Source: Candidatus Methylomirabilis oxygeniifera (GTDB lineage Bacteria > Methylomirabilota > Methylomirabilia > Methylomirabilales > Methylomirabilaceae). From it: a stretch of DNA of 32,000 bases. The stretch spans positions 690,001-722,000 of the forward strand of contig FP565575.1 in NCBI GenBank assembly GCA_000091165.1, written 5' to 3'. Position 1 is the first letter of the stretch, and each line of letters starts with the position of its first letter. A program made the translations under genes and the position numbers. This document shows positions 1 to 26,782 of the stretch, in pieces. The notes below the pieces were generated by a model, which saw nothing but the letters and a program-made list of their open reading frames with translations, was not told where the DNA came from and did not search any database.

Positions 1-2
1 CA

Positions 3-692
3 TGTCATGGTCCGGGAGGTCCGCACACCGATACGGAGGGCGGCGCCATCGGGACGTTGATGACCTTCAAGAAAGGCGCAGAGCCGGTCGAAGCGCAGAA
101 TGCCACGTGTGTGAACGGCTGCCACGAAAAGGGCGAGCACACCTTCTGGAGGGGAAGCACCCACGAATCACGGGGGGTGGCGTGCGTATCATGTCACAAG
201 GTGATGGGGTCGGTGTCCGACCGATACAATCTGACGAAGCCGACCGCGATCGAGGTCTGCTCGCAGTGCCACCAGACCCGACGAGCCCAGCTCCAACGCA
301 GCTCCCACATGCCGCTGCGCGAGGGAAAGATCAGTTGCAGCGACTGCCACAACCCTCACGGGACTGCGACACAGGCTATGCTTCGCGAAGACTCCGTCAA
401 TGAGAACTGCTACACGTGTCATGCCGAGAAACGGGGACCGTTTCTGTGGGAGCATGCGCCCGTCATTGAGAGCTGTACGAACTGCCATGAGCCGCACGGC
501 TCCACCAATGCAAGGCTCCTGAAGGTCAGGATTCCGCGCCTCTGTCAGCAGTGTCACGTCGAGACCCGACACCCGACCAATCCATACGATCCGACAACCG
601 GATCGAGGTTTGTCGTCAACCGAGGTTGTACCAACTGCCACCAGAAGATCCATGGATCTAACCATCCCTCAGGGTTCGCCTTCACGAACTGA
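3..692 (+). CDS. MtrA/DmsE/PioA-family periplasmic decahaem cytochrome c (5' end lies outside the window)
   Basis: Frame 3 is open from nt 3 (tgt cat ggt = CHG..., the tail of a haem motif), so the Met at 57 is internal. Visible haem sites are 7 CxxCH, one CxxxCH (CVNGCH, nt 108-125) and the truncated ..CH. The C-terminus CTNCHQKIHGSNHPSGFAF is the typical ending of DmsE/MtrA-family decahaems. A strong SD (GGAGGAGGTG) and an MtrB/PioB-like gene follow 35 nt downstream. Confidence 0.85.
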   Translation, partial: CHGPGGPHTDTEGGAIGTLMTFKKGAEPVEAQNATCVNGCHEKGEHTFWRGSTHESRGVACVSCHKVMGSVSDRYNLTKPTAIEVCSQCHQTRRAQLQRSSHMPLREGKISCSDCHNPHGTATQAMLREDSVNENCYTCHAEKRGPFLWEHAPVIESCTNCHEPHGSTNARLLKVRIPRLCQQCHVETRHPTNPYDPTTGSRFVVNRGCTNCHQKIHGSNHPSGFAFTN

Positions 693-727
693 GGTTTGCG
701 ATCTGCAGCACACGGAGGAGGTGGGCC

Positions 728-3127
728 ATGGGCGCATTGCTTGGAATAAGACGATTTGGTCGCACGCTGCTGCTCGCCTTCGCCCTGCTGTCGGCGGCCG
801 TCGCCTCAGGTTACGCCGAACAGCCCTCTCCGCAGGAGGCCATCCCTTCTTGGGTCAACTGGCTCAATACCGGGCTGCCCTTTGATTTTGAGCTGACCGG
901 ATTGGATGTTGAGGGTGGCTATCGCGACATCGACGGCCGTCGGAGTTCGGCCAAGTTCCAGGAGTACCGTGTCCTTGAAGAGAGTCCCTTTTTGGATCAC
1001 CTTCGTCTCTCCCTGGAGACCAAAGATAAAAGGCGCTACATCGACTTCACCGCCATTGACAGCTTTAAGCAGGATCAGAGCTACCTGTTTCGACTGGGGC
1101 AGTACGGCGACTATGATCTGGAGATCTTCTGGGATCAGGTTCCGCATTTGTTGAGTACGACGGGACGGACCCTGTTCTCGACGACGCATAAAGACAGTAC
1201 CTCGTTTTTGACTCTGCCCGCTGGTGTTGCCTCAACAGTCCAGGGCGCGACCCCCGCGACAAGAGCCTCCATGTTGGCCGGTTTTCTTGCGAATGCGGCG
1301 CCGGTCGATCTGTCGTTTCTCACAAGTAAGGCAGGGTTTCGATTCAAGTACGCCTTGAGCGAGTCGCTCGGTATGGGGGTCCGTTACACCTATACGGAGA
1401 AAGACGGGACGATTCCGTTCGGCGCAGGCTTCAGCAGCCCGGGTGGCAACATCGTAGAGCTTCCCGCGCCTCTCTTTCATCGAACCCACCAGGTCGAGGT
1501 GAAAACCGAGTATGCGAAGCCAGGCTGGAATATCGGCCTAGGCTATGCCGCCTCGATCTTCGACCAGGGGATCAAGAATATCGTGTTCGACAATCCGCTC
1601 TCGGCGACCAACAGTCCGACCGCCTCGGCGAGCGGGCGAACGACCATGGACCCGAGTAACCATGCCCATAATGTATTTCTGTCTGGCGGCGTCTCTCTTC
1701 CTTTGCGCACCCGGATCACCGGCAAGTTTTCCTACGGTTGGCGGTTTCAGGACGCGACATTCGTTTCGCACACCATCAATCCGGCCCTGGCCGCCGATCC
1801 TCAGTTGGCTCTCCCCAGACGTGATCTCGACGGCGATATCAGGACGGCTCTGGTAACCGTCAACGCGACGAGCCGCCCGCTTGCCGCTCTGCCGCTGACA
1901 CTCAATGGCGGCTACCGCTTCTATGACTTCGATAACCGATCGTCTGAGATCGAGTTTGCCGCGCATACAGTCCGGGATACGTCGCTCACAGCCGAGACCC
2001 GCGTCAACGCGCCCTACTCCTATACGAAGCACAACGCACATCTGGATGCGGGGTATGCTCTTCTCAGCGACCTTCATATCAAGTTGGGTTACGAGTGGGA
2101 GCGATGGGACCGCGACCCCACACTCCGCGAGGTGCCGACCAGCGATGAGCACTTCTTGAAGACCAGTGCGGATTACTCGCCGCTCGACTGGCTCCTGCTC
2201 CGCGCCGCCTACCGACGGAGTTGGCGCGACATCAGCAATTACAATACGCAGGCTCACCAGGCCCATGTGGTGCAGGACATTGAAGGAGAGGAATTTGCCC
2301 TGAATCTCCAGGGTCAGTCGCGCCTGCTTCGGAAGTTCGACGAAGCCGACCGGACCCGGGACAGGATCGAGGTTCTCGCGTCAATCACCCCGTTCGAGAC
2401 GCTGAACTTTACGACCACCTATAGTCTTCTTCGAGATGATTTTGACCAGTCTTCGCTCGGACTACAGGAATCGTGGGGATGGAGCCTGGGCGGTGATGTC
2501 ACCTATAGTCCCTTCTCATGGCTCTCGCTCTTCGTGAACTATATGAGGGAGGAGTTTAAGTACGATCAACTCTCCCGTTCCAGACCGGTCATCAGCAACG
2601 TCTCTACGGCGACCACACCGGCGGCAGGGTGTGCGTTCACGAATCCCACGGCTGCGGTCAGCAACGTGGTGTGCGACTTTGCCGATTTCAACTGGAGAAG
2701 TCTGAACAGAGACAAGGTTGATACCTATGGGGTCGGCGCCGACGTCAGCCTGATCCCCAAACGTCTCAATTTCCGGCTGACCTACACCTTCTCGGATGCC
2801 GACACGATCATTAATTCGTTCAATCCGGTGACGCCGACCAGTGGCACCGTGGCCCAGCAAGCGAGCGCAAAAGCCGTTCGCTATCCCCTGTCGAATACGA
2901 ACCTGCACACGCTGATTGCGGCGCTTCGCTATAACCTGACCAGCAACTGGAGTCTCAAAGGCGAATATCGATTTGAGCAGTTTCGGGAGAAGGACTGGTC
3001 GACCGACGCGATCGGGCAATCAGGCCTCACGAACTTGCCGCCAACGACCGATACCTTCTTAGGCGCTCGGTTTCTCCAGAATTACGACGCGCACATCGGC
3101 GCGTTTACGCTTCGCTACCAGTTCTGA
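728..3127 (+). CDS. MtrB/PioB-family outer-membrane beta-barrel, porin partner of the decahaem cytochrome
   Basis: 799 aa with an N-terminal signal peptide (RTLLLAFALLSAAVASGYA|EQ) and no later hydrophobic helices. The sequence has a Y/G/D/N/T/R-rich alternating pattern typical of long beta-strands and the OMP-type terminal aromatic ...FTLRYQF. Size and position directly after an MtrA-type gene match MtrB/PioB/MtoB. No haem motif. Confidence 0.8.
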   Translation: MGALLGIRRFGRTLLLAFALLSAAVASGYAEQPSPQEAIPSWVNWLNTGLPFDFELTGLDVEGGYRDIDGRRSSAKFQEYRVLEESPFLDHLRLSLETKDKRRYIDFTAIDSFKQDQSYLFRLGQYGDYDLEIFWDQVPHLLSTTGRTLFSTTHKDSTSFLTLPAGVASTVQGATPATRASMLAGFLANAAPVDLSFLTSKAGFRFKYALSESLGMGVRYTYTEKDGTIPFGAGFSSPGGNIVELPAPLFHRTHQVEVKTEYAKPGWNIGLGYAASIFDQGIKNIVFDNPLSATNSPTASASGRTTMDPSNHAHNVFLSGGVSLPLRTRITGKFSYGWRFQDATFVSHTINPALAADPQLALPRRDLDGDIRTALVTVNATSRPLAALPLTLNGGYRFYDFDNRSSEIEFAAHTVRDTSLTAETRVNAPYSYTKHNAHLDAGYALLSDLHIKLGYEWERWDRDPTLREVPTSDEHFLKTSADYSPLDWLLLRAAYRRSWRDISNYNTQAHQAHVVQDIEGEEFALNLQGQSRLLRKFDEADRTRDRIEVLASITPFETLNFTTTYSLLRDDFDQSSLGLQESWGWSLGGDVTYSPFSWLSLFVNYMREEFKYDQLSRSRPVISNVSTATTPAAGCAFTNPTAAVSNVVCDFADFNWRSLNRDKVDTYGVGADVSLIPKRLNFRLTYTFSDADTIINSFNPVTPTSGTVAQQASAKAVRYPLSNTNLHTLIAALRYNLTSNWSLKGEYRFEQFREKDWSTDAIGQSGLTNLPPTTDTFLGARFLQNYDAHIGAFTLRYQF

Positions 3128-3253
3128 GCGAGTCTCCGTATTCCAGGCGTCTCGCTGATGTGTTAGCATGTTGCCTGCGAACGGAGCAGGCAAGCCGGCC
3201 TGCCGGGCGTCGGTCTGGCGGCTGGCTTTTCATATTTAAGACTGAAGGAGGGA

Positions 3254-3709
3254 ATGGTGGTGTCACAGCAAGACGAACACGTCGATCGCGGGCGGCGAGC
3301 GGTGAATTGGCTGCTGGGGAGTTCCCTCGGTGTGCTCTTCGTATCCATTCTGTACCCGATTGCGAAATACTTGATCCCTCCAAAACTTGCCGAGCCGACT
3401 ACGTTCAGCGTGACCCTTCCCTGGAAGCTTGCGGAGTTAAAGGCGAACTCTGGACAGATCTTTCGCTTCAGGAGTCGCCCGGGTATCTTGGTGAAGACCC
3501 AGGCAGGCGAGTTGCGGGCCTTCTCTGCGGTCTGCACACATCTGGAATGCACGGTGCAATACAGGCAAGAGCGGCAGGATATCTGGTGCGCCTGTCATAA
3601 TGGCGTGTACGATCTGAACGGAAAAAATATCAGCGGCCCGCCGCCGCGACCATTGGAGTCCCTGAAGCTGAACGTCAGGGGAGATCAGATTATCGTCATG
3701 AAAGGATAA
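3254..3709 (+). CDS. Rieske [2Fe-2S] subunit of a cytochrome bc/b6f-type complex
   Basis: 151 aa. Both Rieske boxes are present: CTHLEC and CACHNG. The N-terminus has RGRRAV followed by one hydrophobic helix (Tat-type anchor). SD GAAGGAGGGA precedes the ATG. Confidence 0.9.
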
Positions 3710-3714
3710 GTGAG

Positions 3715-4803
3715 GTGGGGGGGATTCGAATCACGGCCTGGCTCGAAGAGCGAATCGATCTCTGGCCGCTCAGACATTTTATCGGGAAGAAGGTCATCCC
3801 CGTCCATCGTCATACCGTCTGGTATTATTTCGGCGGGATGACGCTCTTTCTCTTCATGATCCAGGTGGCAACAGGGATCCTGTTGACCCTCTACTACAGG
3901 CCCAGCGGCGAAGAGGCGTACGAGAGCGTGCAATTCATCATGACCGACGTCCAATTCGGGTGGCTTGTTCGGTCAATTCATAGCTGGTCGGCCAACCTGA
4001 TGGTGCTGATGATGATGATCCACGTGTTCAGTGTCTACCTGACCCAGGCCTACCGAAAGCCGCGAGAGCTGACGTGGGTCACCGGCATGATGCTGTTCGG
4101 CATTGTCCTGTTTTTCGGCTTCAGTGGGTATCTGCTGCCGTGGAACGTGCTGTCGTATTTCGCGACCAAAGTCGGAACTGAGATTGCCGGGCAGTTCCCA
4201 CTGATAGGTCCCGTGCTGATGCGCCTCCTCCGGGGTAGCGACGAGGTGACCGGCGCGACGGTCTCTCGCTTTTACGGCATTCATATTGCCATTCTGCCGG
4301 CGCTAATGACTGCCATCCTTAGCCTGCATCTGTTTCTGGTCCAGAAGCAGGGGATGAGTGTTCCCCCTGCTGTAGAGCGGGCACACAGAGGGCAGCCGCT
4401 TCCGACCATGCCGTTTGTCCCCAATTTTCTGCTACGAGATCTCTTCGGCTGGTTTGTTACGCTCGGACTCCTGGCCGCCCTGGCCGCGCTGTCGCCGTGG
4501 GAACTGGGGCAAAAGGCCGATCCGTTCGCACCGGCGCCAGCCGGCATCCGACCGGAATGGTACTTTGTCTTCATGTTTCAGAGCTTGAAGTATATCCCGG
4601 CCACGATTGGCCCATTTGAGGGCGAGGTCCTGGGGGTGTTGGGTTACAGCCTAGGCGGGCTTTTCCTCTTGCTGGTCCCATTTCTGGACAAGAAGTCGGC
4701 GTTGGGAGAGCCTAGTCCGCTCTTTCGATGGATCGGGATCGGGATTATTGCGTACATCGTGATCTTTACCGTACTTGGATATATTGCGCCAGGCGTCAAA
4801 TGA
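3715..4803 (+). CDS. Cytochrome b (fused b6 + subunit IV layout) of a bc-type quinol oxidoreductase
   Basis: 362-aa polytopic membrane protein. Paired haem-ligand histidines lie in helices (SIHSWSANL...MIHVFSVY; [10 protein letters not shown]...LSLHLF) and the quinol-site motif PEWYF is present. It starts 6 nt after the Rieske stop (GTG start per ORF track). Confidence 0.9.
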
Positions 4804-4810
4804 GGACGCC

Positions 4811-6079
4811 GTGAAGATCGCACTACGCGTTGTCTTGCTCGGCCTCTTCCTGATCGCAGCCGGTCTTATCTCCATTCCCTCGGAAGCGGCAGAGGATGCC
4901 TGCATTGACTGCCACATCGGATTACGAGAGGAGCGCCTCAGCCGTCCGGCCGTCAAGATTAAAGACGATTACCACCTGGCGCGAGGACTGGGCTGCCAAG
5001 GCTGTCACGGCGGCGATCAGACCGCAATCGACAATAAGGCACAGAGCCACAGTCCGGCCAAGGGGTTTCTGGGTAAACCGAAGCGGCACGCGATCCCTGA
5101 ATCCTGCGGGAGGTGCCACAGCGATCCAACCTATATGCGACAGTTCAACCCGTCGATTCGGACGGACCAGGTCAAGGAATACTATACCAGTGTCCATGGG
5201 AAAAGGCTGCGCGAGGGAGATCAGAAGGTCCCCGTCTGTATCGGGTGCCATGACGTCCATGCTATCCGTGCCATTAAGGACCAGATGGCCTGGACCTATC
5301 CGACCAATGTGGCTGAGACCTGCGGCAGATGCCACGGTAACGCCGACTACATGAAAGCGTACAAGATCCCCACGGATCAGCTTGAGAAGTACAAACAAAG
5401 CGTTCATCACGAGATGTTGACCAGGCGGGCGGATCTCGCCTCTCCGACATGCAGTAGTTGCCACGGCAGTCACGGTGCCACCCCTCCAGGTGTCGATTCG
5501 GTGGCGAATGTCTGTAGCCACTGTCATGTCGTGACGGCCGACCTCTTCGCCAAGAGTCCGCACAAGTCGGCATTCGACGAACTGGGGATGCCGGCGTGCG
5601 TGACATGCCATAGCAATCACGATATTACGCACCCGTCTGATGCGATGCTGGGCGGCGGAGAAGGCACCCCGTGCGCGACGTGCCATGAATCCGACTCTGC
5701 ACCGCTGAAGAAGGCTGCCGAATTACGAGCCAGGATTGAGGGGCTTTCGAGCCGGATCGATCAGGCGATGGCGATCCTGACCAGGGCCGAGCACGCAGGT
5801 ATGGAGATCGGCGCTCCTCGGTTCGAGCTGCTTGCGGCAAAAGAGTCCTTGATCAAGGCCAGGGCAGCCACTCATTCGATCGATGTGGAACAGATTAAGA
5901 CCGATACCGACTCCGGGTTGGTTGTAGCCCAGAAAAGTCTGGAGAGCGGCCAAGGCCTCCTGGCTGAGGTGCAGTTCCGTCGCAAAGGGCTGGCGGCCTC
6001 CATGCTGATCATTGTCGCGGTTCTGGTCGGCCTCTTCCTGAAGATCAGAGCGGTTGATCGGCAAAAAGGGTCCGGCTGA
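4811..6079 (+). CDS. Nonahaem c-type cytochrome with C-terminal membrane anchor, probable cytochrome c subunit of the bc complex
   Basis: Nine CxxCH motifs: CIDCH, CQGCH, CGRCH, CIGCH, CGRCH, CSSCH, CSHCH, CVTCH, CATCH. Signal peptide VKIALRVVLLGLFLIAAGLISIPSEA. The C-terminus has a helical region and a TM helix (ASMLIIVAVLVGLFLKI). The ORF track starts at 4775 inside cytochrome b. The GTG at 4811, 8 nt after the cyt b stop, precedes the signal peptide and is preferred. Confidence 0.8.
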   Translation: MKIALRVVLLGLFLIAAGLISIPSEAAEDACIDCHIGLREERLSRPAVKIKDDYHLARGLGCQGCHGGDQTAIDNKAQSHSPAKGFLGKPKRHAIPESCGRCHSDPTYMRQFNPSIRTDQVKEYYTSVHGKRLREGDQKVPVCIGCHDVHAIRAIKDQMAWTYPTNVAETCGRCHGNADYMKAYKIPTDQLEKYKQSVHHEMLTRRADLASPTCSSCHGSHGATPPGVDSVANVCSHCHVVTADLFAKSPHKSAFDELGMPACVTCHSNHDITHPSDAMLGGGEGTPCATCHESDSAPLKKAAELRARIEGLSSRIDQAMAILTRAEHAGMEIGAPRFELLAAKESLIKARAATHSIDVEQIKTDTDSGLVVAQKSLESGQGLLAEVQFRRKGLAASMLIIVAVLVGLFLKIRAVDRQKGSG

Positions 6080-6142
6080 GATGCTGCCGGTCTTGACATG
6101 GATAGGTGGAGTGGCTATAGTTCGCATGATAGCGAGCCGCTC

Positions 6143-6293
6143 AATGAACTACCTCGCAGCAAGCTGCAGGGTATCGTTTTCTGTTGTGGCCCGTCATTCC
6201 GTGCTTGACACGGAATCCAGTCGGGCCCTCTGGATACCGGCTTCAGCCGGTATGAGGCTCGATATAAGCCGCGGGGAATGAACCCCCGGTGGA
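6143..6293 (+). repeat. Multi-hairpin intergenic repeat, copy A (REP/MITE-like)
   Basis: nt 6189-6218 is an exact 30-nt reverse complement of 15701-15730. Homology extends to 6143-6218 versus 15701-15776 (66/76 by hand alignment). Hairpins: CCTCGCAG-caag-CTGCAGGG, ATTCCGTG-cttga-CACGGAAT and ATACCGGC-ttca-GCCGGTAT (copy A only). GAATGA(A)C motifs recur at 6143, 6277, 6311 and 6319. Confidence 0.8.
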
Positions 6294-6352
6294 TTCAATT
6301 CGATAGACGTAATGACGCAATGAACGCAATAGACCTTTCGTAAGGAGGAAGC

Positions 6353-6736
6353 ATGAGATCAATGATCGGAAGGAGCGCGGCGCTTACTCTGGCGTGCCTC
6401 CTCATCGTAAGCGTCACACCGACTCGCAGTCTGGCCCAGGCGAAGCCGAAGATCCCCCCTCCCTTCGCGTTCGAGCAGACGACCAAGGATGAGGCAGGGA
6501 ACCCCAGCCCAGGAAAGGTGACGTTCGATCACAATAAGCATATAGAAAAAGGTCAGAAGTGCCTGAACTGCCACGGCAAGGGTAAACCGTTCAAGACCAA
6601 GATTGGAACCTCTCCGAATCTTACCATGAAGGCCTACGATGAAGGGAAGGCGTGCGGTACCTGCCATGACGGGAAGGTTGCCTTCTCCACAAAGGAGATG
6701 GGTAACTGCCTGAAGTGCCATAAGGTGCCATCATAG
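6353..6736 (+). CDS. Trihaem cytochrome c7 / c3-family periplasmic cytochrome
   Basis: 127 aa with signal peptide (ALTLACLLIVSVTPTRSLA|QA) and three CxxCH motifs (CLNCH, CGTCH, CLKCH). The pattern VTFDHNKH...C..CH and a small Lys-rich mature domain are as in PpcA-type c7 cytochromes. SD TAAGGAGGAAGC precedes the ATG. Confidence 0.8.
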   Translation: MRSMIGRSAALTLACLLIVSVTPTRSLAQAKPKIPPPFAFEQTTKDEAGNPSPGKVTFDHNKHIEKGQKCLNCHGKGKPFKTKIGTSPNLTMKAYDEGKACGTCHDGKVAFSTKEMGNCLKCHKVPS

Positions 6737-6808
6737 TTCCGTATCTGTACGGCACCGAGACATAGCGGCGAGGTTGGGGCGGGTGATCGGCTTGTGGATC
6801 CGCCTATT

Positions 6809-6837
6809 CGCGATCGCCGCTATCGCGCGTTTTGTTT
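6809..6837 (+). terminator. Weak intrinsic-terminator-like hairpin after the c7 gene
   Basis: CGCGAT-cgccgct-ATCGCG (6-bp stem, 6809-6827) followed by cgTTTTgTTTg. It overlaps the TTG at 6832 that the ORF track uses as the next gene's start, which argues for a later start (GTG 6844 or 6868). Confidence 0.25.
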
Positions 6838-8991
6838 GAGAACGTGGGTGGCCATACCATTTCGCGCGTGATAACCGGGAGCGTACGCTTCGGGAAGGCG
6901 ACCGGAAGCCTTTACCTTGTCTGGCTGTGTCTGACGATCATTGTGAATCCCGTTGGGGCTGTCGCGGAGGCTGCTCCTGCCTCTGCGGAGTGCCTGACCT
7001 GCCACGACGATTCCGACGACCCCGTTCAATCCCCACACCAAACACTGGGCTGCGTCGGGTGCCATGCCGACATCTCAGACGGGCCTCACATTACCACGCC
7101 CAAGCCGGTCCGTTGCGGCGCATGCCATCGCAAGTCCCATGAGACGGTTCCGGAGAGCGCTCATGCCACACTGGGTGGCAGTGGGCCCAGCGCTGGTTGC
7201 ATCGCCTGTCATGGCAGCCATCGGATTCAGAAGATAGTTGCCGATTCCGATGTCATCTGCTCGTCGTGCCATGGCCGACAGGCCAAGCAAATGGCGGTCG
7301 GCATCCATGCTGCCGGCCGGGCAGATAAGACTCGGAACCTGCCCACCTGCGTGACGTGCCACACAGCGCACGCCTCTAAATCTCGCCGGGACGCTGTCTC
7401 TCCCACACATCGCTCTCAGATTCACGAAACCTGCGCCCGCTGCCATGCCGATCCGGAAATCATTGCCCAGGAACGGATCGCGAGGCCGCGGGTTGTGGCG
7501 CTGTTCGAGCAGAGTATCCACGGACAGGCTATCCTGCGGAAAGGTAATCTCGCGGCCGCAACCTGCACCGATTGTCACGGTGCGCATGAGATCCGGCGAG
7601 GCGTCGATCCGGCCTCGGCCATCTTCAAGGGAAACGTGGCCGCGACCTGCAGCCGTTGTCACGGCAACGAGGCGGCGCAGTTCCGGGATAGTGTGCACGG
7701 GGGGGCCGTCTCACGTGGGATTTCGGCGGCGCCGACATGTACCGATTGCCACGGAGAGCATGGGATTACCGCCACTCGTGCTCCAGGATCACGGGTCGCG
7801 CCGCTGACGGTCTCCAAGACCTGTGCTGCCTGCCATGAGGCGACGCCGGTGGTCGAGGAGTTTGGTCTCGCGCCGCGTCGAGCCGGAACGTTCTTTGAGA
7901 GCTTCCATGGTCTGGCGGTGAGGGGTGGGTCGCCCGTTGTGGCCAACTGTGCAAGCTGCCACGGAATCCACAACATCCATCCCTCCTCCGATCCTCGTTC
8001 TACCATCAACCCGATGAACCTCTCGCGGACCTGCGGACAGTGCCACCGGGGCGCCGGTGTACAATTGGCCGGCGTCCGGATTCACGTAGCTCCAGGATTC
8101 GGCGAACATCCATGGGTGACGCTGGTCCGACGGATCTACCTCGTGATGATCGTTGTCGTCATCGGCGGGATGGGCCTGCACAACGGACTTGACTTCCTGG
8201 CGCATCTGCGAGAGCGTTGGCGGGCAGAGGGCCGGCCGGACGGCGAACCCGCCGTACTCCCCGAGGTAGCGCACCGGCTCTTTGAACGCTGGACACTCAA
8301 TGAGCGAATTCAGCACGTCATGCTGTTGGCGACCTTCACGATCCTGGTGATCACGGGCTTTGCCCTGAAGTTTCCTGATTCGTGGTGGGCGCGGCCGCTA
8401 GTCTGGATCGAAAGAGGGTATACCGTTCGAGCGTGGCTCCATCGAATCTCCGGCGTGCTCATGGCGCTGGCGGCCATATACCATCTGGCGTATCTGTTCG
8501 GCACACAACGTGGTCGAACGCAGTTCCGATGCATGAAACCCGGGCGACGGGACTTGCATGAGGCGTGGGGAATGGTGGCCTTTAACCTGGGCCTGAGGTT
8601 GCACCGGCCGCGTTTCCATCGCTTTACATACGCGGAGAAACTGGAGTACTGGGCGGTCATATGGGGCACTGCCGTGATGACCGGCACCGGGTTTATGATG
8701 TGGTTTCAGGCCGGTGTGCTGACGCGCTGGTCCCTTCTCGTCATTGACCTGGCGACCGTCGTCCATTATTACGAGGCCTGGCTTGCCACGTCGGCCATTG
8801 TCGTCTGGCACTTCTACAGCGTCATCTTCCGGCCTGATATCTACCCGATGAGTCCGGTCTGGCTGAGGGGGACGATGACGGGGGAGCAGATGGCACGGGA
8901 TCACGCCGCCGAACTGGAGGAGATCCTTGCAGCAGAAACCGTATCCAGCTCATTGCCTGGCGATGAGATGACTTCACCGCAGGACAGCTAA
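6832..8991 (+). CDS. CbcL-like fusion: 13-haem periplasmic cytochrome c domain + FdnI/HydC-type membrane cytochrome b domain
   Basis: The N-terminal ~420 aa carry 13 CxxCH motifs (CLTCH ... CGQCH). The C-terminal ~290 aa have 5 hydrophobic helices with conserved His (HVMLLATFTILVITGF, WLHRISGVLMALAAIYHLAYL, VVHYYEAWLATSAIVVWHFY), as in Ni/Fe-hydrogenase / formate dehydrogenase b-type cytochromes. The start is uncertain (TTG 6832, GTG 6844 or GTG 6868); the signal-like segment is LYLVWLCLTIIVNPVGAVAEA. Confidence 0.85.
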   Translation: MFENVGGHTISRVITGSVRFGKATGSLYLVWLCLTIIVNPVGAVAEAAPASAECLTCHDDSDDPVQSPHQTLGCVGCHADISDGPHITTPKPVRCGACHRKSHETVPESAHATLGGSGPSAGCIACHGSHRIQKIVADSDVICSSCHGRQAKQMAVGIHAAGRADKTRNLPTCVTCHTAHASKSRRDAVSPTHRSQIHETCARCHADPEIIAQERIARPRVVALFEQSIHGQAILRKGNLAAATCTDCHGAHEIRRGVDPASAIFKGNVAATCSRCHGNEAAQFRDSVHGGAVSRGISAAPTCTDCHGEHGITATRAPGSRVAPLTVSKTCAACHEATPVVEEFGLAPRRAGTFFESFHGLAVRGGSPVVANCASCHGIHNIHPSSDPRSTINPMNLSRTCGQCHRGAGVQLAGVRIHVAPGFGEHPWVTLVRRIYLVMIVVVIGGMGLHNGLDFLAHLRERWRAEGRPDGEPAVLPEVAHRLFERWTLNERIQHVMLLATFTILVITGFALKFPDSWWARPLVWIERGYTVRAWLHRISGVLMALAAIYHLAYLFGTQRGRTQFRCMKPGRRDLHEAWGMVAFNLGLRLHRPRFHRFTYAEKLEYWAVIWGTAVMTGTGFMMWFQAGVLTRWSLLVIDLATVVHYYEAWLATSAIVVWHFYSVIFRPDIYPMSPVWLRGTMTGEQMARDHAAELEEILAAETVSSSLPGDEMTSPQDS

Positions 8992-9005
8992 GGTGAGACG
9001 ATCAG

Positions 9006-11204
9006 ATGGCTGAACAACCACCCGTCCGACGCCGCGGCTTGCGCATCCTCCTGATCGCCCTGGCGACCGGCATCGTCGTTGGAGGTCTCGCGGTGGGTGG
9101 GCTCTATCGCCTTAGTTCGAGCCCGCTCCTATGCAATTCCTGCCATATTATGAAACCGTATGTTGAGGCCTGGAGGAGTTCCAAACACAACAACGTCACG
9201 TGTATCGATTGCCATTACCCTCCGGAGCTTCGCGGCACCATATGGGTGAAGTACCAGGCACTTTCCCAGGTTGCGAAGTGGGCGACGCAAACCTACAGTT
9301 CGAAGCCGTTCGCCGAGGTTGAGGATGCGAGTTGCCTTCGCTCTGGGTGTCATACGAGCCGCCTGCTTGAGGGTAAAGTCACCTTCAAACGGGGGATTAT
9401 CTTTGACCACGGCCCGCACCTGAAAGAGGAACGCCGGGGGCGGCAGCTTCGGTGCACAAGCTGTCACTCCCAGATCGTGGTTGGGACGCACATCGAGGTG
9501 ACCACGACCACCTGTTACCTCTGTCACTTTAAGGGGATGAAGACATCTCGGGAATTTCACCCTCTTGGCGGCTGTACGGTCTGCCACACGGTGCCCAAGG
9601 AGGATATCAAGCTGGGGACCATTGCCTTCAACCACGAGTCGATGGTGAAGCGAAATGTCGGATGCGAGAAGTGCCATCTCAACGTGGTTGAGGGGAGTGG
9701 TCAGGCCCCACAAGAGCGCTGCTATACCTGTCACAACCAGCCAGAGAAGCTTCAGAAGTACGCCGACACACCATTCATGCATGAATTCCACGTGGCCGGT
9801 CATCATATCGAGTGTACCCGTTGCCACAGCGAGATCAGACACAAACTCCCGCCCCCCATCGGCTTATCCCTGAGCGGGTTATTGCAATGGTTATCGGAAC
9901 CCTCGAGTGCCGAGGCTGCCGAGAGCAGTGCCCAAGTCCTGCCGAAGCGGCTGTTCCAGTCGCCGGCGGTGAAGATGCCAGAGGCGCACCCTGCGACTCG
10001 GGATCGAGGGCTTGATTGCAAAGCCTGCCATCAGGCTACTCACCAGGGAGTCCTCGAGATGTACGTTGGTATGGGAGGGAAGGGGACGCCGATGATTCCC
10101 GGCCACATGTTTCAGGTCAGGGTAGAGTGCGTAGCCTGTCATGTGGAGCCCGGGAAGGACAAGGCCATGGCGACATTCGGTGGGCGGACATTCAGACCAT
10201 CAGAACGCGCATGTCTTGGTTGCCACGGCGAGCGGTACAAAGGGATGCTGGAACGCTGGACAAAGACTATCACCACTATGCTCACGACGGTCAATGCAAA
10301 GCTCTTGTTAGCGGAGCAGGCTCTGCAAACCACTCATCGGGCTCACCCGCAGTTTGCGAAGGCCTGGAAATTGGCAACCGATGCGCGACACAATGTGGAA
10401 TTCGTCACGAATGGGAAGGGCGTTCACAACGTCTTCTTTGCTGCCGACTTACTGAAGGTTGCGGACGGGTACCTGGATCAGTCGATGGCGGCAATCGGGC
10501 AGTTGCCTCTGAAGGTTGCAGAGGAGACCCTCGTCCGGGGAGGCTATTGCGCGGTGCTGTGTCACAATCAACTGGGAGTGAAGGCACCGGAGGAGGTAAA
10601 ATTTGGGGCTGAGACGATCCCGCATGTCCGCCACGTGACTGAGTTCGGTGTCACATGCACGGCATGTCACTCGGCCGAACGACACAAGGCGGTGACCGCC
10701 ACAAAGGCGACTTGCCTGAGCTGTCATCACCGCGCGGGGAATGATAACGAGCGGTGCATCGCCTGTCACACGCTCCAGAACGCCTTCTTTTCTGGTACGA
10801 TTAAGGTTGAGGCGGTTGTTGAGCCGACCCCCAGTGCCCACGTAGAGCTGATCGACTGTGTGGGATGCCACAACGTCCAGAAGCAGCATTCCAGGCAAGC
10901 GGTGGCAGCGCAGTGCCTGGGCTGCCATGACACGACGTCCGTCAAGGTGTTCACGCAGTGGCGGAAAGATATCGGTCAAGGTCTGGAAGAGGCCATGCGC
11001 CTCCTGAGGAAAGGGGAGTCCGGCCTGCGCCATGCTCCTCAAGACCCGAAGGCATCCGAGGTGCGCCTTCTCCTTCAGGCGGCGAAACGGGATCTCGATC
11101 TGGTCGTCAAGGCTGGGGGAATTCACAATCCAGAGCTGGCGAAGGCGATCTTGGTCAAGGCAAAGGAATCGGCCGAGCGGGCCATACGCTTCTTGAACCG
11201 GTAG
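9006..11204 (+). CDS. NapC/NirT/NrfH-type membrane-anchored multihaem cytochrome c (16 CxxCH + 2 atypical motifs)
   Basis: An N-terminal TM helix is followed by CNSCHIMKPYVEAWRSSKHNNVTCIDCH, the hallmark start of NapC/NirT/NrfH quinol dehydrogenases. 16 canonical CxxCH motifs were counted by hand, plus CLRSGCH (9333-9353) and CAVLCH (10548-10565). The C-terminal half has long helical segments with GVHN/GIHN motifs. Confidence 0.85.
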   Translation: MAEQPPVRRRGLRILLIALATGIVVGGLAVGGLYRLSSSPLLCNSCHIMKPYVEAWRSSKHNNVTCIDCHYPPELRGTIWVKYQALSQVAKWATQTYSSKPFAEVEDASCLRSGCHTSRLLEGKVTFKRGIIFDHGPHLKEERRGRQLRCTSCHSQIVVGTHIEVTTTTCYLCHFKGMKTSREFHPLGGCTVCHTVPKEDIKLGTIAFNHESMVKRNVGCEKCHLNVVEGSGQAPQERCYTCHNQPEKLQKYADTPFMHEFHVAGHHIECTRCHSEIRHKLPPPIGLSLSGLLQWLSEPSSAEAAESSAQVLPKRLFQSPAVKMPEAHPATRDRGLDCKACHQATHQGVLEMYVGMGGKGTPMIPGHMFQVRVECVACHVEPGKDKAMATFGGRTFRPSERACLGCHGERYKGMLERWTKTITTMLTTVNAKLLLAEQALQTTHRAHPQFAKAWKLATDARHNVEFVTNGKGVHNVFFAADLLKVADGYLDQSMAAIGQLPLKVAEETLVRGGYCAVLCHNQLGVKAPEEVKFGAETIPHVRHVTEFGVTCTACHSAERHKAVTATKATCLSCHHRAGNDNERCIACHTLQNAFFSGTIKVEAVVEPTPSAHVELIDCVGCHNVQKQHSRQAVAAQCLGCHDTTSVKVFTQWRKDIGQGLEEAMRLLRKGESGLRHAPQDPKASEVRLLLQAAKRDLDLVVKAGGIHNPELAKAILVKAKESAERAIRFLNR

Positions 11205-11269
11205 GTGTGTGGGCGATATAAGGTTGCGCAAATCGAGCTATGTCAAACAGAGTCAACCCAGAGAGGACA

Positions 11270-11815
11270 ATGGAAGAACAACGATCATCCGGTAAGATAC
11301 GCCTTATCATAATGCTGGGCAGTACGTTGGCCGTAGGATTTCTTCTTGGGTACCTGGCTTCAGCCTTCGTTCCTCTCGTCCAGTCGCCACAATCGCCCGC
11401 CGTGTCGCCGTCTGCCGCTCCTGGTCCTAAGCTTTCACCCTCCGAGATTGATTCGGCCTTGAAGGCGGCCCACGCCTCGCTCGATGCTGGCGACCTCCAA
11501 GCCGCCTGGGAGAAATATCATCAGATCCTGCTCACTGATAGGAATCATATTGAGGCGCTGACGCACCTCGGAGTAATCTTGACGCAGAGCAATCAGCCGG
11601 ATGAGGCCATCAAGCTGTACGATCGAGCGTTGAGCCTGAATCCCCAGTATGCCCATGCCCTGTTCGATAAGGGACAGGCCTTACAGGCGAAAGGGGATGC
11701 GAAGGGCGCCACTGAGGTGTTCCAGCGGTTTCTCGCTCTGGTACCGCCGGACTCGGACGATGCCAAACGAGTCAAGGGATGGATTGCGGAGCTGACCCAT
11801 TCCAAGAAGCCATAA
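11270..11815 (+). CDS. Membrane-anchored TPR protein, CcmI/NrfG-like (possible apocytochrome chaperone)
   Basis: One N-terminal TM helix (IRLIIMLGSTLAVGFLLGYLASAFV) is followed by about three TPR units (AWEKYHQILLTDRNHIEALTHLGVIL..., AIKLYDRALSLNPQYAHALFDKGQAL..., ATEVFQRFLALVPPDS). The ATG at 11270 has the SD GAGAGGA; the upstream ATG at 11240 has none. It sits directly after five multihaem genes. Confidence 0.7.
   Translation: MEEQRSSGKIRLIIMLGSTLAVGFLLGYLASAFVPLVQSPQSPAVSPSAAPGPKLSPSEIDSALKAAHASLDAGDLQAAWEKYHQILLTDRNHIEALTHLGVILTQSNQPDEAIKLYDRALSLNPQYAHALFDKGQALQAKGDAKGATEVFQRFLALVPPDSDDAKRVKGWIAELTHSKKP
11620..11794 (+). repeat. Segmental duplication, copy 1 (3' end of the TPR gene)
   Basis: Ungapped 175-nt alignment with 14958-15132 (offset 3338 nt). 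About 138/175 nt are identical by hand count, and 48/58 residues at protein level. Confidence 0.85.
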
Positions 11816-13697: not shown

Positions 13698-14287
13698 TGG
13701 TGCAGCCGACAGCTTGGCGCATACTGCTTGACGGCGTAGGGACGGGAGGATGTATGGGCACCAGCGGAGCGATTTCGACACTGATTCGAGTGACCGTATG
13801 TCTCGGTCTCGTGAGTCCGGTCTTGGTGCTCGCTCGAGTAGCGGCTGGCGATGTAGCAGCCGAGTGTACACCGCCTTCCCTCGTGTGGTTTGACCCTATC
13901 TTCTTCTCCTATAACGTGGCGCTCGCACTGTTCGCCGTACTTTCCATCCCAGGCATTACGTATTTTTATGTCGTCTCCAGGAAGGCCGAGAAGATCAGGC
14001 GGCTGCGAAACGATCTCAGCGAAGAACGCTGGAGCCTCAATGAAGAGGCGATTGTCAACATCGTTGAGCGCCAGTTCCGGATGCGTCATTACCTTGGCAG
14101 CATGCTGACCCTGACCATCGTCGTCCTGCTTGGGACATCCATCATTCTCTTGCTCAAACCTTTCTCCGGAGCGGGTTGTGGGGGGTCGATTACAGTAAGG
14201 GCGCCAACTTCCTACTGTTGGGGCCTTACATGCTGTTTGGGCCTGATGGCCGCCCCGACCATGACTATTACCAGCATATTGCGGTGA
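13697..14287 (+). CDS. Membrane protein, N-terminal part (probably the first half of a frameshifted gene)
   Basis: The ATG at 13697 overlaps the lipase stop (GTGATG). The translation has hydrophobic helices up to ...LLGTSIILLLKPFSGAG. After the G6 run at 14180-14185 it turns Cys/Trp-rich and unprotein-like before the stop at 14287. Confidence 0.5.
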   Translation: MVQPTAWRILLDGVGTGGCMGTSGAISTLIRVTVCLGLVSPVLVLARVAAGDVAAECTPPSLVWFDPIFFSYNVALALFAVLSIPGITYFYVVSRKAEKIRRLRNDLSEERWSLNEEAIVNIVERQFRMRHYLGSMLTLTIVVLLGTSIILLLKPFSGAGCGGSITVRAPTSYCWGLTCCLGLMAAPTMTITSILR

Positions 14288-15186
14288 GTCTGACGGCCTT
14301 CCAGTTCGGCTTTCTCGGCGCCTACGTCTATCTGATCGGAGACCTCGTCAGGGCCTACTTTATACTCGATCTGACCCCGCAAGTGTTTGTAGCCAGCACC
14401 ATCCGCGTCATCACCGGGAGCCTGCTAGCCTTGGTGACCTCATTTATGACGGGTTATATGTCGAAGGAAGTCAATATCAGCCTGCCATTGATTAGCTTTT
14501 TTTTCGGCTACTTTCCGGAAACAGCCCTGATTCTGATCCAAAAAAAGGTGGCCGGCTGGATTGGTCTGGGTGAGACGAAGTACCACGCTATACCGCTGTC
14601 AAGACTACCCGGCATGAGCTATGCGCACGAGACCCGCCTGATACGTGAAGGCTATGACAATGTAGAAAACCTGGCCACCGTTCGGCCGTTGGATTTGATG
14701 TTGCGGACAGGATTTACTCATCGTCAGGTGCGGCAGTGGATCGCGCAGGCATGGTTGTACAGCCATATGCGAGAGGATTACGAGGAGTTCGTCAAGCAGA
14801 CCGGTATTACCGGTGCAGATGAACTCGCAGAGCTTCTTGATAAGGGTAACGTCGGCTCTACGACGCCGGAGGAATACTTGAGCGCCGCTACCGGCGACAA
14901 GTATACGCACAAGATTGCAGCACTATGCCGTTTGGTTGGTAAGTGGAAAGAACGAGCCGATCGTCCGCTGAGCCTGAGCCCCCAGTACACTCGTGCCCTG
15001 TTTGATAAAGGGCAGGCGTTGAAAGCGAAGGGGGACACGAAGGGGGCGATTGAGGTGTTTCAGCGATTTCTCGCACTCGTGCCGCCAGACTCCGACGATG
15101 CCAAGCAGGTCAAAGAATGGATCGCGAAGCTCGGCAAATCAGGCCGTTCCACACCGAACACAGGTGACGAGCCTGGGAAGCCGTAG
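14176..15186 (+). CDS. Membrane protein, C-terminal part, ending in a duplicated TPR module
   Basis: Frame 1 is open from 14068 and its only start candidate is the TTG at 14176, inside the G-run region. The sequence is protein-like from WGVDYSKGANFLLLGPYML..., with several TM helices and a soluble domain (HAIPLSRLPGMSYAHETRLIREGYDNVENLA, helix-hairpin-helix-like). The last ~58 aa are homologous to the TPR protein's C-terminus. Confidence 0.6.
   Translation: MWGVDYSKGANFLLLGPYMLFGPDGRPDHDYYQHIAVSLTAFQFGFLGAYVYLIGDLVRAYFILDLTPQVFVASTIRVITGSLLALVTSFMTGYMSKEVNISLPLISFFFGYFPETALILIQKKVAGWIGLGETKYHAIPLSRLPGMSYAHETRLIREGYDNVENLATVRPLDLMLRTGFTHRQVRQWIAQAWLYSHMREDYEEFVKQTGITGADELAELLDKGNVGSTTPEEYLSAATGDKYTHKIAALCRLVGKWKERADRPLSLSPQYTRALFDKGQALKAKGDTKGAIEVFQRFLALVPPDSDDAKQVKEWIAKLGKSGRSTPNTGDEPGKP
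14958..15132 (+). repeat. Segmental duplication, copy 2 (TPR module fused to the membrane-protein ORF)
   Basis: See copy 1 (11620-11794). It translates in frame as DRPLSLSPQYTRALFDKGQALKAKGDTKGAIEVFQRFLALVPPDSDDAKQVKEWIAKL. Confidence 0.85.
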
Positions 15187-15236: not shown

Positions 15237-15554
15237 TTAGAATACAAGTGCAATCGCACCAGCGACAACTCTAAAAGGAAAAGCTAATACATTGCCGATG
15301 AAATTTAAGGTTCTGCTTAAAATACCTCCCGATACGCCCTCAGTCTTCTTTTCCTCCACTTCAGTCCGCCCCTCTGCCTTTGTCGCGCTGGTGTTTTCTG
15401 ATTGTGGAGACGCTTCACTTGATTCCATTGAATCTCGTTTTGTCTCGTGTGTAGTAACTGGCTCTGTCTTCGTCGTTGAAGTAGCAGTGCATCCTTCAAA
15501 TCCAAACACAGCAAATACACTGAGCACCATCAGTAAGAATATTCTCTTCTTCAT
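15237..15554 (-). CDS. Small secreted / membrane-tethered protein of unknown function
   Basis: 105 aa with signal peptide MKKRIFLLMVLSVFAVFGFEG|C (lipobox-like but atypical). The middle is S/T/E-rich low complexity and the tail is hydrophobic (NVLAFPFRVVAGAIALVF). The gene is visibly more AT-rich than its neighbours. SD CCTGGAGGTG precedes the ATG. Confidence 0.55.
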   Translation of the reverse strand: MKKRIFLLMVLSVFAVFGFEGCTATSTTKTEPVTTHETKRDSMESSEASPQSENTSATKAEGRTEVEEKKTEGVSGGILSRTLNFIGNVLAFPFRVVAGAIALVF

Positions 15555-15654: not shown

Positions 15655-15792
15655 TTACATTCACCGTTCATTCTAAGCCTGTCGAAGAGTGAGACATTCC
15701 GGATTCCGTGTCAAGCACGGAATGACGGGCGAGAACAGAAGACGATGCCCCGCGGTTTGCCGCGGGGTAGGTCATTCTATTGGGGGTTCATT
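15655..15792 (-). repeat. Multi-hairpin intergenic repeat, copy B (inverted relative to copy A)
   Basis: 15701-15730 is an exact reverse complement of 6189-6218, with extended homology to 15776. Its first hairpin is CCCCGCGG-caaa-CCGCGGGG, with paired changes relative to copy A. GAATGAAC-type motifs lie at both ends. It lacks copy A's third hairpin. Confidence 0.8.
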
Positions 15793-21130: not shown

Positions 21131-21149
21131 GGTAGTGGGTCAGTTTGAA
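21131..21149 (+). repeat. Left terminal inverted repeat
   Basis: GGTAGTGGGTCAGTTTGAA. It contains the transposase stop codon (tca at 21140-21142 = TGA on the minus strand). Confidence 0.9.
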
Positions 21150-21973
21150 TCCAGTAAGCCGACAATTTCTTCGAGCGACCATACATGATCGGTAACTCCC
21201 GCCTGCATCGCCGGGGTAACTCGAAGCGTCTGATGTACCCGCCCGAAGTTGTACCACATGAAATGTAGGGCAACAGCGGCCTCAAGGTTCTCAACTTTCT
21301 TCGAGAAGGCATTAGTCAGTCGAGTGAATCTCCTCATGCTCATGCGCATGGTAAGGTTCTGGCGTTCCACAAACGAGGTCGAGACGTGCCGAGGATCGGG
21401 GTTTCCTTCAATCCGGTTTTTCTGGCATCCCGTACACTGAGGCGGACTGTATCGCCTCTGCTGCTGCTCTGGCGCTTCCCCGAACAGCTTCACTAATTGC
21501 GCGTAGTCCACATCGGCTCCAAACGCACCCTCTATGGCAGTCAGATACATCTTCAACCCGTCCGTCGTGAGTTGTACGCGGGTAGCGAGCCGCGTTGCAA
21601 GATCGTTGATAAACTCAGCAGCATAGCCCGCGTCACGTTCGCCTACCAGCCAAGAGATCATCAGTTTGGAGTCGGCGTCCATAGCCGCCCAAGTCCACAC
21701 ATCGCCGACTCCTGGTTTTCCCTTCATGTGCTCAGGCACGTTCTTTTCCTTCGCATAGCAGAATGACCATATCTCATCGCACTGGATACGCTTGCAGCGG
21801 AGATTCACGAGGGTTCGCCGCTGGTACTCACTGCAAGCTGCTCCGAGATCGGCCAAGAGCTTGAGGACCGTGCCTTTGGCTACACCCGTCATGCGGACAG
21901 TGGAGCGAATCGAATTGCCTTCGACTAGGGCGGCTACGACTTGTGCCCGCTTGTCCTTGCTTAATCTGTTCAT
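21140..21973 (-). CDS. IS1-family-like DDE transposase (single-ORF type)
   Basis: 277 aa from the ATG at 21973 (MNRLSKDKRAQVVAALVEGNSIRST = N-terminal HTH). The core pattern is CDEIWSF...WTWAAMDADSKL...LTTDGLKMY...SFVERQNLTMRMSMRRFTRLTNAFSKKVENL. This parallels IS1 InsB (DExW...TDG...ERxNLxxRxxxxRLxRKxxxFSK), recalled from memory. Confidence 0.8.
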   Translation of the reverse strand: MNRLSKDKRAQVVAALVEGNSIRSTVRMTGVAKGTVLKLLADLGAACSEYQRRTLVNLRCKRIQCDEIWSFCYAKEKNVPEHMKGKPGVGDVWTWAAMDADSKLMISWLVGERDAGYAAEFINDLATRLATRVQLTTDGLKMYLTAIEGAFGADVDYAQLVKLFGEAPEQQQRRYSPPQCTGCQKNRIEGNPDPRHVSTSFVERQNLTMRMSMRRFTRLTNAFSKKVENLEAAVALHFMWYNFGRVHQTLRVTPAMQAGVTDHVWSLEEIVGLLDSN

Positions 21974-22064
21974 ACTCAGAATATAGCTTGAGCGGTCAAG
22001 CATGTCAAGAGGAAAATGATGTTGAAACATTGTGGCGGCGATAGATTATGAGAAGATTGGCGTC

Positions 22065-24098: not shown

Positions 24099-24103
24099 GT
24101 ATT

Positions 24104-26697: not shown

Positions 26698-26782
26698 TTG
26701 ATCAGATTATCCCGCCGATATTAATCCATCGCTTAGGACACTACCTGCCAGCACTATCTACTACCCGTCATTTACCACTCAC

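Follow-up and report, generated by a model that had tools for sequence, protein, structure and literature searches.

A nine-gene cluster of Candidatus Methylomirabilis oxyfera predicted to connect the quinone pool with the cell surface

Candidatus Methylomirabilis is a model for nitrite-driven methane oxidation and has been treated as an organism of purely soluble-substrate metabolism. Here we describe a cluster of nine genes in the 2.75-Mb genome of Candidatus Methylomirabilis oxyfera, found at the beginning of a stretch of 32,000 nucleotides (nt) (contig FP565575.1, positions 690,001 to 722,000 of the forward strand; called the window below), which on balance probably encodes a complete electron path between the quinone pool of the inner membrane and the cell surface. 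An MtrAB-type conduit through the outer membrane stands beside three inner-membrane modules, from which we infer three alternative entry points that exchange electrons with quinol. The cluster is real, well delimited and conserved; its function is predicted from sequence. The DNA agrees at every position with M. oxyfera sequence over an overlap of 13.1 kb, and an exact copy of the MtrB protein is present in assembly GCA_009026205.1. Its proteins correspond to CBE67881-CBE67887, for which GenBank gives the labels 'MtrB/PioB family', 'putative plastoquinol-plastocyanin reductase' or hypothetical, and nothing more. Our literature searches, combining Methylomirabilis or NC10 with conduit, bc1 or extracellular electron transfer, returned no paper on the locus, and the comparative-genomics paper on Methylomirabilis (PMC6094997) mentions neither bc1 nor complex III nor an outer-membrane conduit.

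An earlier note on the window, made without database searches, had described nine co-oriented genes between positions 1 and 11815, and all nine were recovered there as plus-strand open reading frames (ORFs) (Table 1). They are separated by gaps of 35, 126, 5, 7, 273, 95, 14 and 35 nt, in agreement with the note's estimate of gaps mostly below 130 nt and a largest one of about 270 nt, which contains, besides a repeat, a sigma-70-like site matching the consensus at 11 of 12 positions. The start codons of the nonahaem, 13-haem, Rieske and TPR (tetratricopeptide repeat) genes are ambiguous by a few codons. Families were called with Pfam and NCBIfam models at their curated cut-offs, and the assignments that the note had made by reading the translations were borne out by matches above these cut-offs; likewise, a recount of the haem motifs gave the numbers that it had obtained by hand (8 full plus 1 truncated, 9, 3, 13 and 16(+2)). 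The CxxCH densities in the cluster exceed chance expectation. The remaining ORFs of the window contain no CxxCH at all. Indeed, no further ORF with this motif was found on either strand of the window or in the 9.3 kb of DNA upstream of it (about 41 kb in total), and for this reason there is no candidate for MtrC, OmcA or Cyc2 within these 41 kb; the remaining genome was not searched. The absence of an MtrC/OmcA-type gene and the two-component layout resembling PioAB and MtoAB, both proposed in the note, thus also held for the upstream DNA.

Table 1. Features of the cluster with their positions in the window.
Feature	Position	Strand	Basis
mtrA-like decahaem cytochrome gene, 3' 229 codons	1..692 (3-692)	+	TIGR03508 match; 5' end outside the window
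mtrB/pioB-type outer-membrane barrel, 799 amino acids, signal peptide	728..3127	+	PF11854, TIGR03509
Rieske 2Fe-2S subunit, N-terminal RR motif and transmembrane anchor	3254..3709	+	PF00355
Long cytochrome b, b6 part fused to subunit IV part	3715..4803	+	PF00033 and PF00032
Nonahaem c-type cytochrome, C-terminal transmembrane helix, N-terminal signal or anchor	4811..6079	+	9 CxxCH
Sigma-70-like promoter site TTGACA-17-TATAGT, 11/12, 5' of the c7 gene	6093..6121	+	Consensus match
c7-type trihaem cytochrome, predicted periplasmic, PpcA-like shuttle	6353..6736	+	TIGR04257, PF14522, signal peptide
13-haem periplasmic domain and C-terminal FdnI/HydC-type cytochrome b domain	6832..8991	+	13 CxxCH, PF01292
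NrfH/NapC-type quinol dehydrogenase head and 16-18-haem extension	9006..11204	+	PF03264, motif count
TPR protein, membrane-anchored, presumed assembly/chaperone factor	11240..11815	+	TPR Pfam matches, transmembrane segment 22-40

The window opens within mtrA. The full gene starts 310 nt upstream of it (read at L002, 8964-9965; L numbers denote the sequences and loci compared) and encodes 333 amino acids (aa) with a signal peptide, nine CxxCH motifs and one CxxxCH (CVNGCH), ten in all; the part within the window contains seven CxxCH and the CxxxCH, and another motif is split by its edge. The C-terminal 229 aa alone score 242 bits on TIGR03508, the model of DmsE/MtrA decahaem cytochromes (cut-off 192), and in the alignment with Shewanella baltica MtrA (6r2q_A, 1.1e-72) all ten haem sites coincide, the third carrying a one-residue insertion that makes it CX3CH. 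Among the relatives inspected, this variant (window 96-113) is confined to the Methylomirabilis clade (M. oxyfera, L008 and L009), and CxxCH stands at that site in the more distant ones as well as in the MtrA of S. baltica. A homologue search with MtrA gave 7967 matches, the best 120 of which are proteins from metagenomes or metagenome-assembled genomes (MAGs).

The mtrB gene, which starts 35 nt 3' of mtrA, encodes a barrel scoring 382 bits on PF11854 (cut-off 23) and 308 bits on TIGR03509 (cut-off 240), and 6r2q_B was its sole match in a phmmer search of the PDB (4.7e-19). The AlphaFold2 model shows about 26 long strands at moderate confidence (predicted local distance difference test score 63, predicted template-modelling score 0.53), with strands modelled better than loops. 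In a Foldseek search with this model 6r2q_B again came first (3.9e-30), and the next match, a TonB-dependent receptor, followed at 1.5e-07, a gap of 22 orders of magnitude. The check for an unrelated family of outer-membrane proteins, which the note had named as a possible refutation, therefore came out negative: Pfam, NCBIfam, phmmer and Foldseek all indicate MtrB. By all these comparisons, MtrA and MtrB genuinely belong to the MtrAB/MtoAB/PioAB family. In this family the barrel sheathes the cytochrome, which spans the outer membrane, and by analogy the predicted MtrB would sheathe the decahaem cytochrome and permit the passage of electrons over the outer membrane.

The first of the inner-membrane modules directly follows mtrB. 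Its Rieske protein (PF00355, 42 bits against 20) shows similarity to the transmembrane anchor of PetC and contains the cluster boxes CTHLEC and CACHNGVY; no match to the ExtO model was obtained. The cytochrome b (PF00033, 186 bits, plus PF00032) aligns with spinach b6 (6rqf_I) at 3e-65, retains the four haem-ligand histidines as pairs in helices B and D of the b6 alignment, and has PEWY in its subunit-IV part. At the position of the haem-ci motif CxGG it reads YFGG, the cysteine being replaced, and on the ExtP model NF040969 it reaches 216 bits, which is below the cut-off of 290. The nonahaem cytochrome has transmembrane-like segments at residues 3-21 and 394-412, and its nine CxxCH motifs are invariant across 9 orthologues, as is the C-terminal anchor. 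Its gene adjoins those for Rieske protein and cytochrome b wherever the neighbouring DNA was recovered, either right after the cytochrome b gene, as here, or right before the Rieske gene, as in many relatives, and the protein is presumed to be the substitute for c1/f in the complex. From the nonahaem subunit in place of c1/f and YFGG in place of CxGG, the complex is best described as a variant, neither bc1 nor b6f proper. Dibrova et al. (PMC5600118) noted long cytochrome b genes 'in large conserved operons ... of an unknown function'; the cytochrome b of M. oxyfera named in the same paper, DAMO_0768 (CBE67833), is a different gene from CBE67883.

The second module is a protein with 13 CxxCH motifs followed by a PF01292 (Ni_hydr_CYTB) domain at residues 486-667 (45 bits against 30) and with transmembrane segments; its start codon is uncertain (6832, 6844 or 6868). 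Likened by architecture alone, it is CbcL-like (Geobacter GSU0274). The third, of 732 aa, has an N-terminal NapC/NirT region (PF03264, 38 bits against 24), a transmembrane segment at 12-30 and a CNSCHIM that aligns with CTSCHIM of NrfH (2j7a_C), so that CxxCHxM is kept. With 16 CxxCH, one CxxxCH and one CxxxxCH it is far larger than the tetrahaem or pentahaem members of the NapC/NirT/NrfH family and falls outside the size range of that family. As two Methylomirabilis lineages, L008 and L045, lack its gene, which in L096 is divided between two octahaem ORFs, this NrfH-headed protein appears as a fused and dispensable module. Hallmarks of quinol/quinone sites are present in all three modules, namely the Rieske boxes with four histidines and PEWY, the FdnI/HydC-type b domain, and the NrfH helix with CxxCHxM. 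The cluster further contains a c7 trihaem cytochrome (TIGR04257, 63 bits against 40; PF14522, 57 bits; signal peptide) and the TPR protein, which shows multiple TPR Pfam matches and a weak CcmH/CycH-TPR match. The predicted topology, based on signal peptides or transmembrane anchors, places all haem domains in the periplasm. A specialised haem attachment is conceivable in this cluster, given the CX3CH of MtrA, the CX3CH and CX4CH of the NrfH-like protein and the weak CcmH/CycH-TPR match of the TPR protein.

From these parts the following path is proposed. Quinol or quinone would exchange electrons at one of the three inner-membrane modules: (i) the Rieske/cytochrome b complex, in which the membrane-anchored nonahaem cytochrome would replace the c1/f subunit, (ii) the CbcL-like fusion of 13 haems with a dihaem cytochrome b, or (iii) the NrfH-headed 16-18-haem protein. 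Periplasmic haem chains and the soluble c7 trihaem cytochrome would ferry the electrons to or from MtrA, which would reside inside MtrB, and exchange at the surface would take place where the tip of MtrA alone is exposed. The TPR protein would assist in the assembly of the system.

As the earlier note had stated, direction and substrate cannot be read from the sequence; the parts list is equally compatible with uptake. We weakly prefer export. The Q-cycle route would then serve Mn(IV), chelated Fe(III), oxidised humics and similar acceptors with potentials higher than that of the Rieske centre, and the NrfH-like and CbcL-like routes would serve acceptors of lower potential, much as Geobacter employs ImcH, CbcL or CbcBA according to potential. 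Conduits of this family are reversible, and uptake therefore stays a serious alternative, to which we assign a lesser but substantial probability: MtrAB would work as MtoAB and PioAB do, oxidising an extracellular donor (Fe(II) or Mn(II) in solution, humics in reduced form, or a partner cell, for example Ca. Methanoperedens), with c7 and the multihaem proteins passing the electrons to periplasmic nitrite, nitric oxide (NO) or O2 reductases and also uphill to quinone via the NrfH-like protein and a reversed Rieske/cytochrome b complex. The two-component layout lacking MtrC within 41 kb is that of Fe(II) oxidisers, and a NapC/NrfH-type gene in an mtrAB cluster is reminiscent of mtoAB-cymA of Sideroxydans (PMC10654088, PMC4412085). 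In a sequence network, PioA and PioB have MtrAB relatives from Rokubacteria as first neighbours, at about 43% identity (PMC10654088). The pet operon of Acidithiobacillus shows the pattern of a dedicated bc complex beside genes for iron oxidation (PMC10654088), and the tip of MtrA, narrow and not capped by MtrC (structure in PMC7198977), suits donors in solution. On the other hand, methane already provides reductant, so that reverse electron flow is not obviously required, the presence of three separate quinol modules rather resembles the export tuned to potential known from Geobacter, and no physiological report of such uptake was found in the literature searched.

Comparison with Ca. M. lanthanidiphila delimits the unit. 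The nine genes are present there with identical content and order although both flanks are different, which sets the limits of the unit at mtrA and the TPR gene. Within it, two transcription units are likely, mtrA to nonahaem and c7 to TPR, as judged from consensus matches: a sigma-70-like site (TTGACA-17-TATAGT, 11/12) lies 5' of mtrA and is kept in relatives, the site before c7 has identical hexamers and is kept in the relative L011, and weak terminator-like hairpins are located 3' of mtrB and of c7. Of the 'one contiguous locus' described in the earlier note, the contiguity and co-orientation of the genes thus stand, and a single transcription unit probably does not. Inspection by eye revealed no convincing Fur- or FNR-like operator at either promoter-like site, and no Rfam family matched in the window at gathering thresholds.

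Two further elements are found near these sites. Between the -10 box and the mtrA start (L002, 8901-8963) lies a leader of about 45 nt (CGCTACTCGAATTCAGAGTTGCGTTTCCAGTCGTA), which is more strongly conserved among Methylomirabilis relatives than the DNA farther upstream and may have a regulatory function. Two copies of a repeat of about 90 nt are present, copy A in the 273-nt gap at window 6128-6225 (plus strand), where it separates the promoter-like site from the start of c7, and copy B at 15695-15790 (minus strand), preceding a small lipoprotein-like ORF (15554..15237, minus strand). The repeat folds into two hairpins, the first of which has compensatory changes between the copies that preserve pairing (z-scores -2.3 and -4.9). 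Copy A is absent from the corresponding gap in relatives. The element could be a REP/MITE-like insertion (repetitive extragenic palindrome or miniature inverted-repeat transposable element) or a shared leader.

The note had also suggested that the physical link of the conduit to a Rieske/cytochrome b complex points to an electron path between quinone and the outside, and this linkage was found to recur, in shuffled order, in Methylomirabilota, Acidobacteriota, delta-proteobacterial MAGs and metagenomes. Two scans were carried out. For the first, a 9-sequence MtrB alignment was run against one genome per species, yielding 36 loci that were then searched by tblastn with the window proteins; for the second, metagenomes were scanned with a nonahaem alignment, yielding at least 567 confirmed stretches, 80 loci of which were analysed. 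The order of the cluster is kept in the Methylomirabilis assemblies L008, L009, L010/11, L044, L045, L047 and L049, apart from the NrfH-headed gene missing in L008 and L045. Other Methylomirabilota (L016, L025, L041) have the order nonahaem-Rieske-cytochrome b-c7-NapC-like-MtrA-MtrB, and MtrA-MtrB followed by nonahaem-Rieske-cytochrome b is found in a delta-proteobacterial MAG (L030, contiguous), an Acidiferrales MAG (L023) and a Rokubacteria MAG (L022). The linkage of MtrAB with the nonahaem/Rieske/cytochrome b trio hence exists in at least three gene orders. A TPR homologue lies 3' of MtrB also in the distant loci L094 and L112.

In the metagenomes, the trio is widespread in soil and groundwater and stays together in nearly all loci of sufficient extent, often accompanied by genes of the c7-like and 13-haem/b-like kinds. 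In 12 of the 80 loci canonical MtrAB is found within 10 kb; in 7 further loci a haemless protein of about 750 aa and a divergent decahaem cytochrome (30-36% identical to MtrA) are placed directly 5' of the Rieske gene. Counting either pair, about half of the longer nonahaem loci have such a neighbour, in several gene orders. It is from this recurrent linkage, with rearranged orders and in several phyla, that a functional coupling of MtrAB with the bc-type module is argued.

Two observations on individual loci may be added. In L105 (4766-8175), L106 (4445-8007) and L116 (4876-8163), which form a divergent lineage, the 10-haem protein is 30-33% identical to MtrA and the haemless protein of 740-810 aa has no Pfam match or a barely significant one (L105, MtrB_PioB, 24.1 bits against 23); this large protein may represent a remote MtrB-like barrel family. 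L007 (DATMXF010000174.1), a 6.7-kb contig labelled 'Patescibacteria group bacterium', encodes an MtrA 90% and an MtrB 95% identical to those of M. oxyfera and is almost certainly a mis-binned Methylomirabilis contig.

Several points weigh against the proposed path. The scan from the MtrB side gave many MtrAB loci with no Rieske/cytochrome b nearby, and about half of the loci of at least 9 kb, in which bc-type modules could be evaluated, have no MtrAB within 10 kb. Since MtrAB is so frequently missing beside them, it is, as far as gene neighbourhoods tell, a frequent but optional output of a more general bc module, and the coupling is optional as well. The strong promoter-like site before c7, together with the weak terminator-like hairpins, suggests at least two transcripts. 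The G-Y type box II of the Rieske protein corresponds, in the scheme of Kao and Hunte (PMC4122944), to a centre of low-to-mid potential, which suggests the same for the centre here. The haems of MtrA-type cytochromes usually have potentials that are lower still, and with both values low, forward flow along the bc route would require a final acceptor of high potential. Contact with solid minerals is doubtful without an MtrC-type partner, and the literature searched contains no report of an extracellular redox metabolism of M. oxyfera.

Some of these points would fit a different explanation, namely that the nonahaem/Rieske/cytochrome b complex, c7 and the 13-haem fusion constitute a general periplasmic respiratory hub, serving, for example, nitrite reductase, oxidases linked to NO dismutase or other reductases, and that mtrAB is a mere neighbour with its own role and regulation. 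The occurrence of the trio in at least 567 metagenome stretches, with about half of the loci of at least 9 kb having no MtrAB in reach, would be expected of such a hub, as would the internal promoter-like site that divides the cluster into two halves and the dispensability of the NrfH-headed gene (NapC16) in L008 and L045. However, MtrAB or the divergent decahaem/large-protein pair adjoins the trio far more often than chance neighbours would, in rearranged orders and several phyla, and the nine genes stay together though their flanks differ between species. Additionally, mtrB and the Rieske gene of M. oxyfera are 126 nt apart on one strand behind a common upstream promoter-like site, which favours their coupling. 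We therefore consider the hub improbable.

Less probable still is a use of the DmsEF type, in which MtrAB would feed an extracellular terminal reductase encoded elsewhere and acting on a soluble oxyanion or organic oxide (dimethyl sulphoxide, iodate, selenite or similar compounds). NCBIfam names the MtrA family 'DmsE family', the Ext cluster of Geobacter with its Rieske protein and cytochrome b has been linked to selenite and tellurite reduction (PMC5877670), and the cytochrome b here scores 216 bits on the ExtP model. That score is, however, below the ExtP cut-off of 290, and the about 41 kb examined contain no DmsAB-like or other catalytic gene. The sole molybdoenzyme nearby (29189-31888, minus strand) was considered as a DmsAB-type partner and rejected, its N-terminal 2Fe-2S and 4Fe-4S domains being those of the cytoplasmic formate-dehydrogenase type.

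A path between quinone pool and cell surface, with export weakly preferred, thus remains our reading of the cluster. Going further, we tentatively suggest, accepting that it may well prove wrong, that the Rieske/cytochrome b complex with its nonahaem 'wire' plugs via c7 into the two-component MtrAB and forms an energy-conserving extracellular chain, by which Mn(IV), Fe(III) chelates, humics or anodes would be respired with a Q-cycle, or electrons from Fe(II) or Methanoperedens would be taken up; the module would be genus-wide and widespread in uncultured Methylomirabilota (Rokubacteria) and Acidobacteriota of soil and groundwater. Methanoperedens is a frequent partner of Methylomirabilis. M. 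oxyfera may accordingly exchange electrons with metals or partner cells, and if so, these would be candidate genes for bacterial methane oxidation linked to metals, humics or electrodes and for nitrite reduction driven by Fe(II) or by a partner, processes that are disputed or unexplored. The uncharacterised class of Rieske/cytochrome b complexes with a nonahaem subunit is common in soil and aquifer metagenomes, often beside MtrAB. If its Q-cycle feeds an outer-membrane conduit, extracellular respiration would here conserve energy in a way that is not known from Shewanella and has not been demonstrated for Geobacter.

On the 5' side of mtrA follow a 212-aa ORF with no known domains, a PIN toxin-antitoxin pair and then the divergent uvrD and gatCAB. 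The PIN-domain toxin with its small antitoxin-like ORF and the 212-aa protein (L001/L002, 7291-7952 and 8186-8824) lie between uvrD and mtrA; the 212-aa ORF is retained in the close relatives L007 and L044, and none was seen 5' of mtrA in M. lanthanidiphila, whose gene calls are different there. On the 3' side of the TPR gene there are unrelated genes for RNase T2, a hydrolase, ABC transporter components, an insertion sequence (IS) fragment, RNase II and the formate-dehydrogenase-like molybdoenzyme. The block of RNase T2, hydrolase and membrane protein (about 11.9-16 kb) appears to have been inserted in M. oxyfera, adding about 4 kb, as in M. lanthanidiphila (L123) and L008 the TPR gene nearly abuts DUF4340 and ABC genes. 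The last approximately 63 codons of the TPR gene (11621-11815) are duplicated at 14960-15186 with 78% aa identity, where they form the C-terminus of a 336-aa membrane ORF (14176-15186). Farther downstream, window 21140-27000 has a GC content of 44-49% against about 58% elsewhere and includes an ORF (21140-22030) with a weak IS1-transposase match; this stretch is probably foreign DNA. A recent horizontal acquisition was also considered for the cluster itself and rejected, its GC content of 56-63% equalling that of the surroundings, unlike the 44-49% of the island at 22-27 kb.

By analogy, the closest precedents are mtoAB-cymA of Sideroxydans and extHIJKLMNOPQS of Geobacter. MtoAB-CymA(-MtoD) of Sideroxydans lithotrophicus and PioAB(C) of Rhodopseudomonas palustris likewise consist of a decahaem cytochrome and an MtrB-type barrel of the same protein families (TIGR03508 and TIGR03509) with no MtrC, and MtoAB-CymA is, as here, accompanied by a NapC/NrfH-type quinol/quinone module. 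The present cluster differs in that the NapC/NrfH head is fused to a 16-18-haem wire, in the CX3CH motif at haem 3 of MtrA, in the lack of a MtoD monohaem cytochrome or a PioC high-potential iron protein, and in the addition of the Rieske/cytochrome b/nonahaem complex, c7 and the 13-haem/b fusion. Moreover, the host is a nitrite-dependent methanotroph of the phylum NC10, in which Fe(II) oxidation would be a candidate function.

With MtrCAB of Shewanella (PDB 6R2Q) the cluster shares an MtrA of 333 aa in which the ten haem sites align, and MtrB of that complex is both the sole PDB sequence match and the top fold match of the barrel. In contrast to Shewanella, no MtrC/OmcA-type extracellular decahaem cytochrome is present within 41 kb, the quinol modules are of another kind than the tetrahaem CymA, and a c7 trihaem cytochrome takes the place of the FccA/STC-type shuttles.

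The bc-type module has its counterparts elsewhere. In the anammox bacterium Kuenenia, which has several bc-type complexes per genome (PMC5600118, PMC8790184), multihaem cytochromes replace c1/f as they would here; the complex of M. oxyfera has neither the NAD(P)-binding oxidoreductase nor the subunit resembling hydroxylamine oxidoreductase, and is linked to an outer-membrane conduit. In extHIJKLMNOPQS of Geobacter sulfurreducens (Cbc6 region; PMC5877670) the genes for a porin-like protein and for multihaem cytochromes lie together with those for a Rieske protein and a cytochrome b of the b6 type, as in our cluster, but the porin is ExtI rather than MtrB, the cytochrome b here is long with a fused subunit IV (216 bits against the ExtP cut-off of 290), and there is no rhodanese or selenoprotein. 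The fusion of a multihaem part with an FdnI-type b domain is the architecture of CbcL, with 13 haems here and 9 there, and a PpcA-like c7 trihaem cytochrome is common to both organisms, as is the idea of several quinol modules for different potentials (CbcL, ImcH, CbcBA). Unlike in Geobacter, all of these modules are found in one cluster together with an MtrAB conduit. The locus is therefore a known kind of system in a new arrangement, in a well-studied organism.

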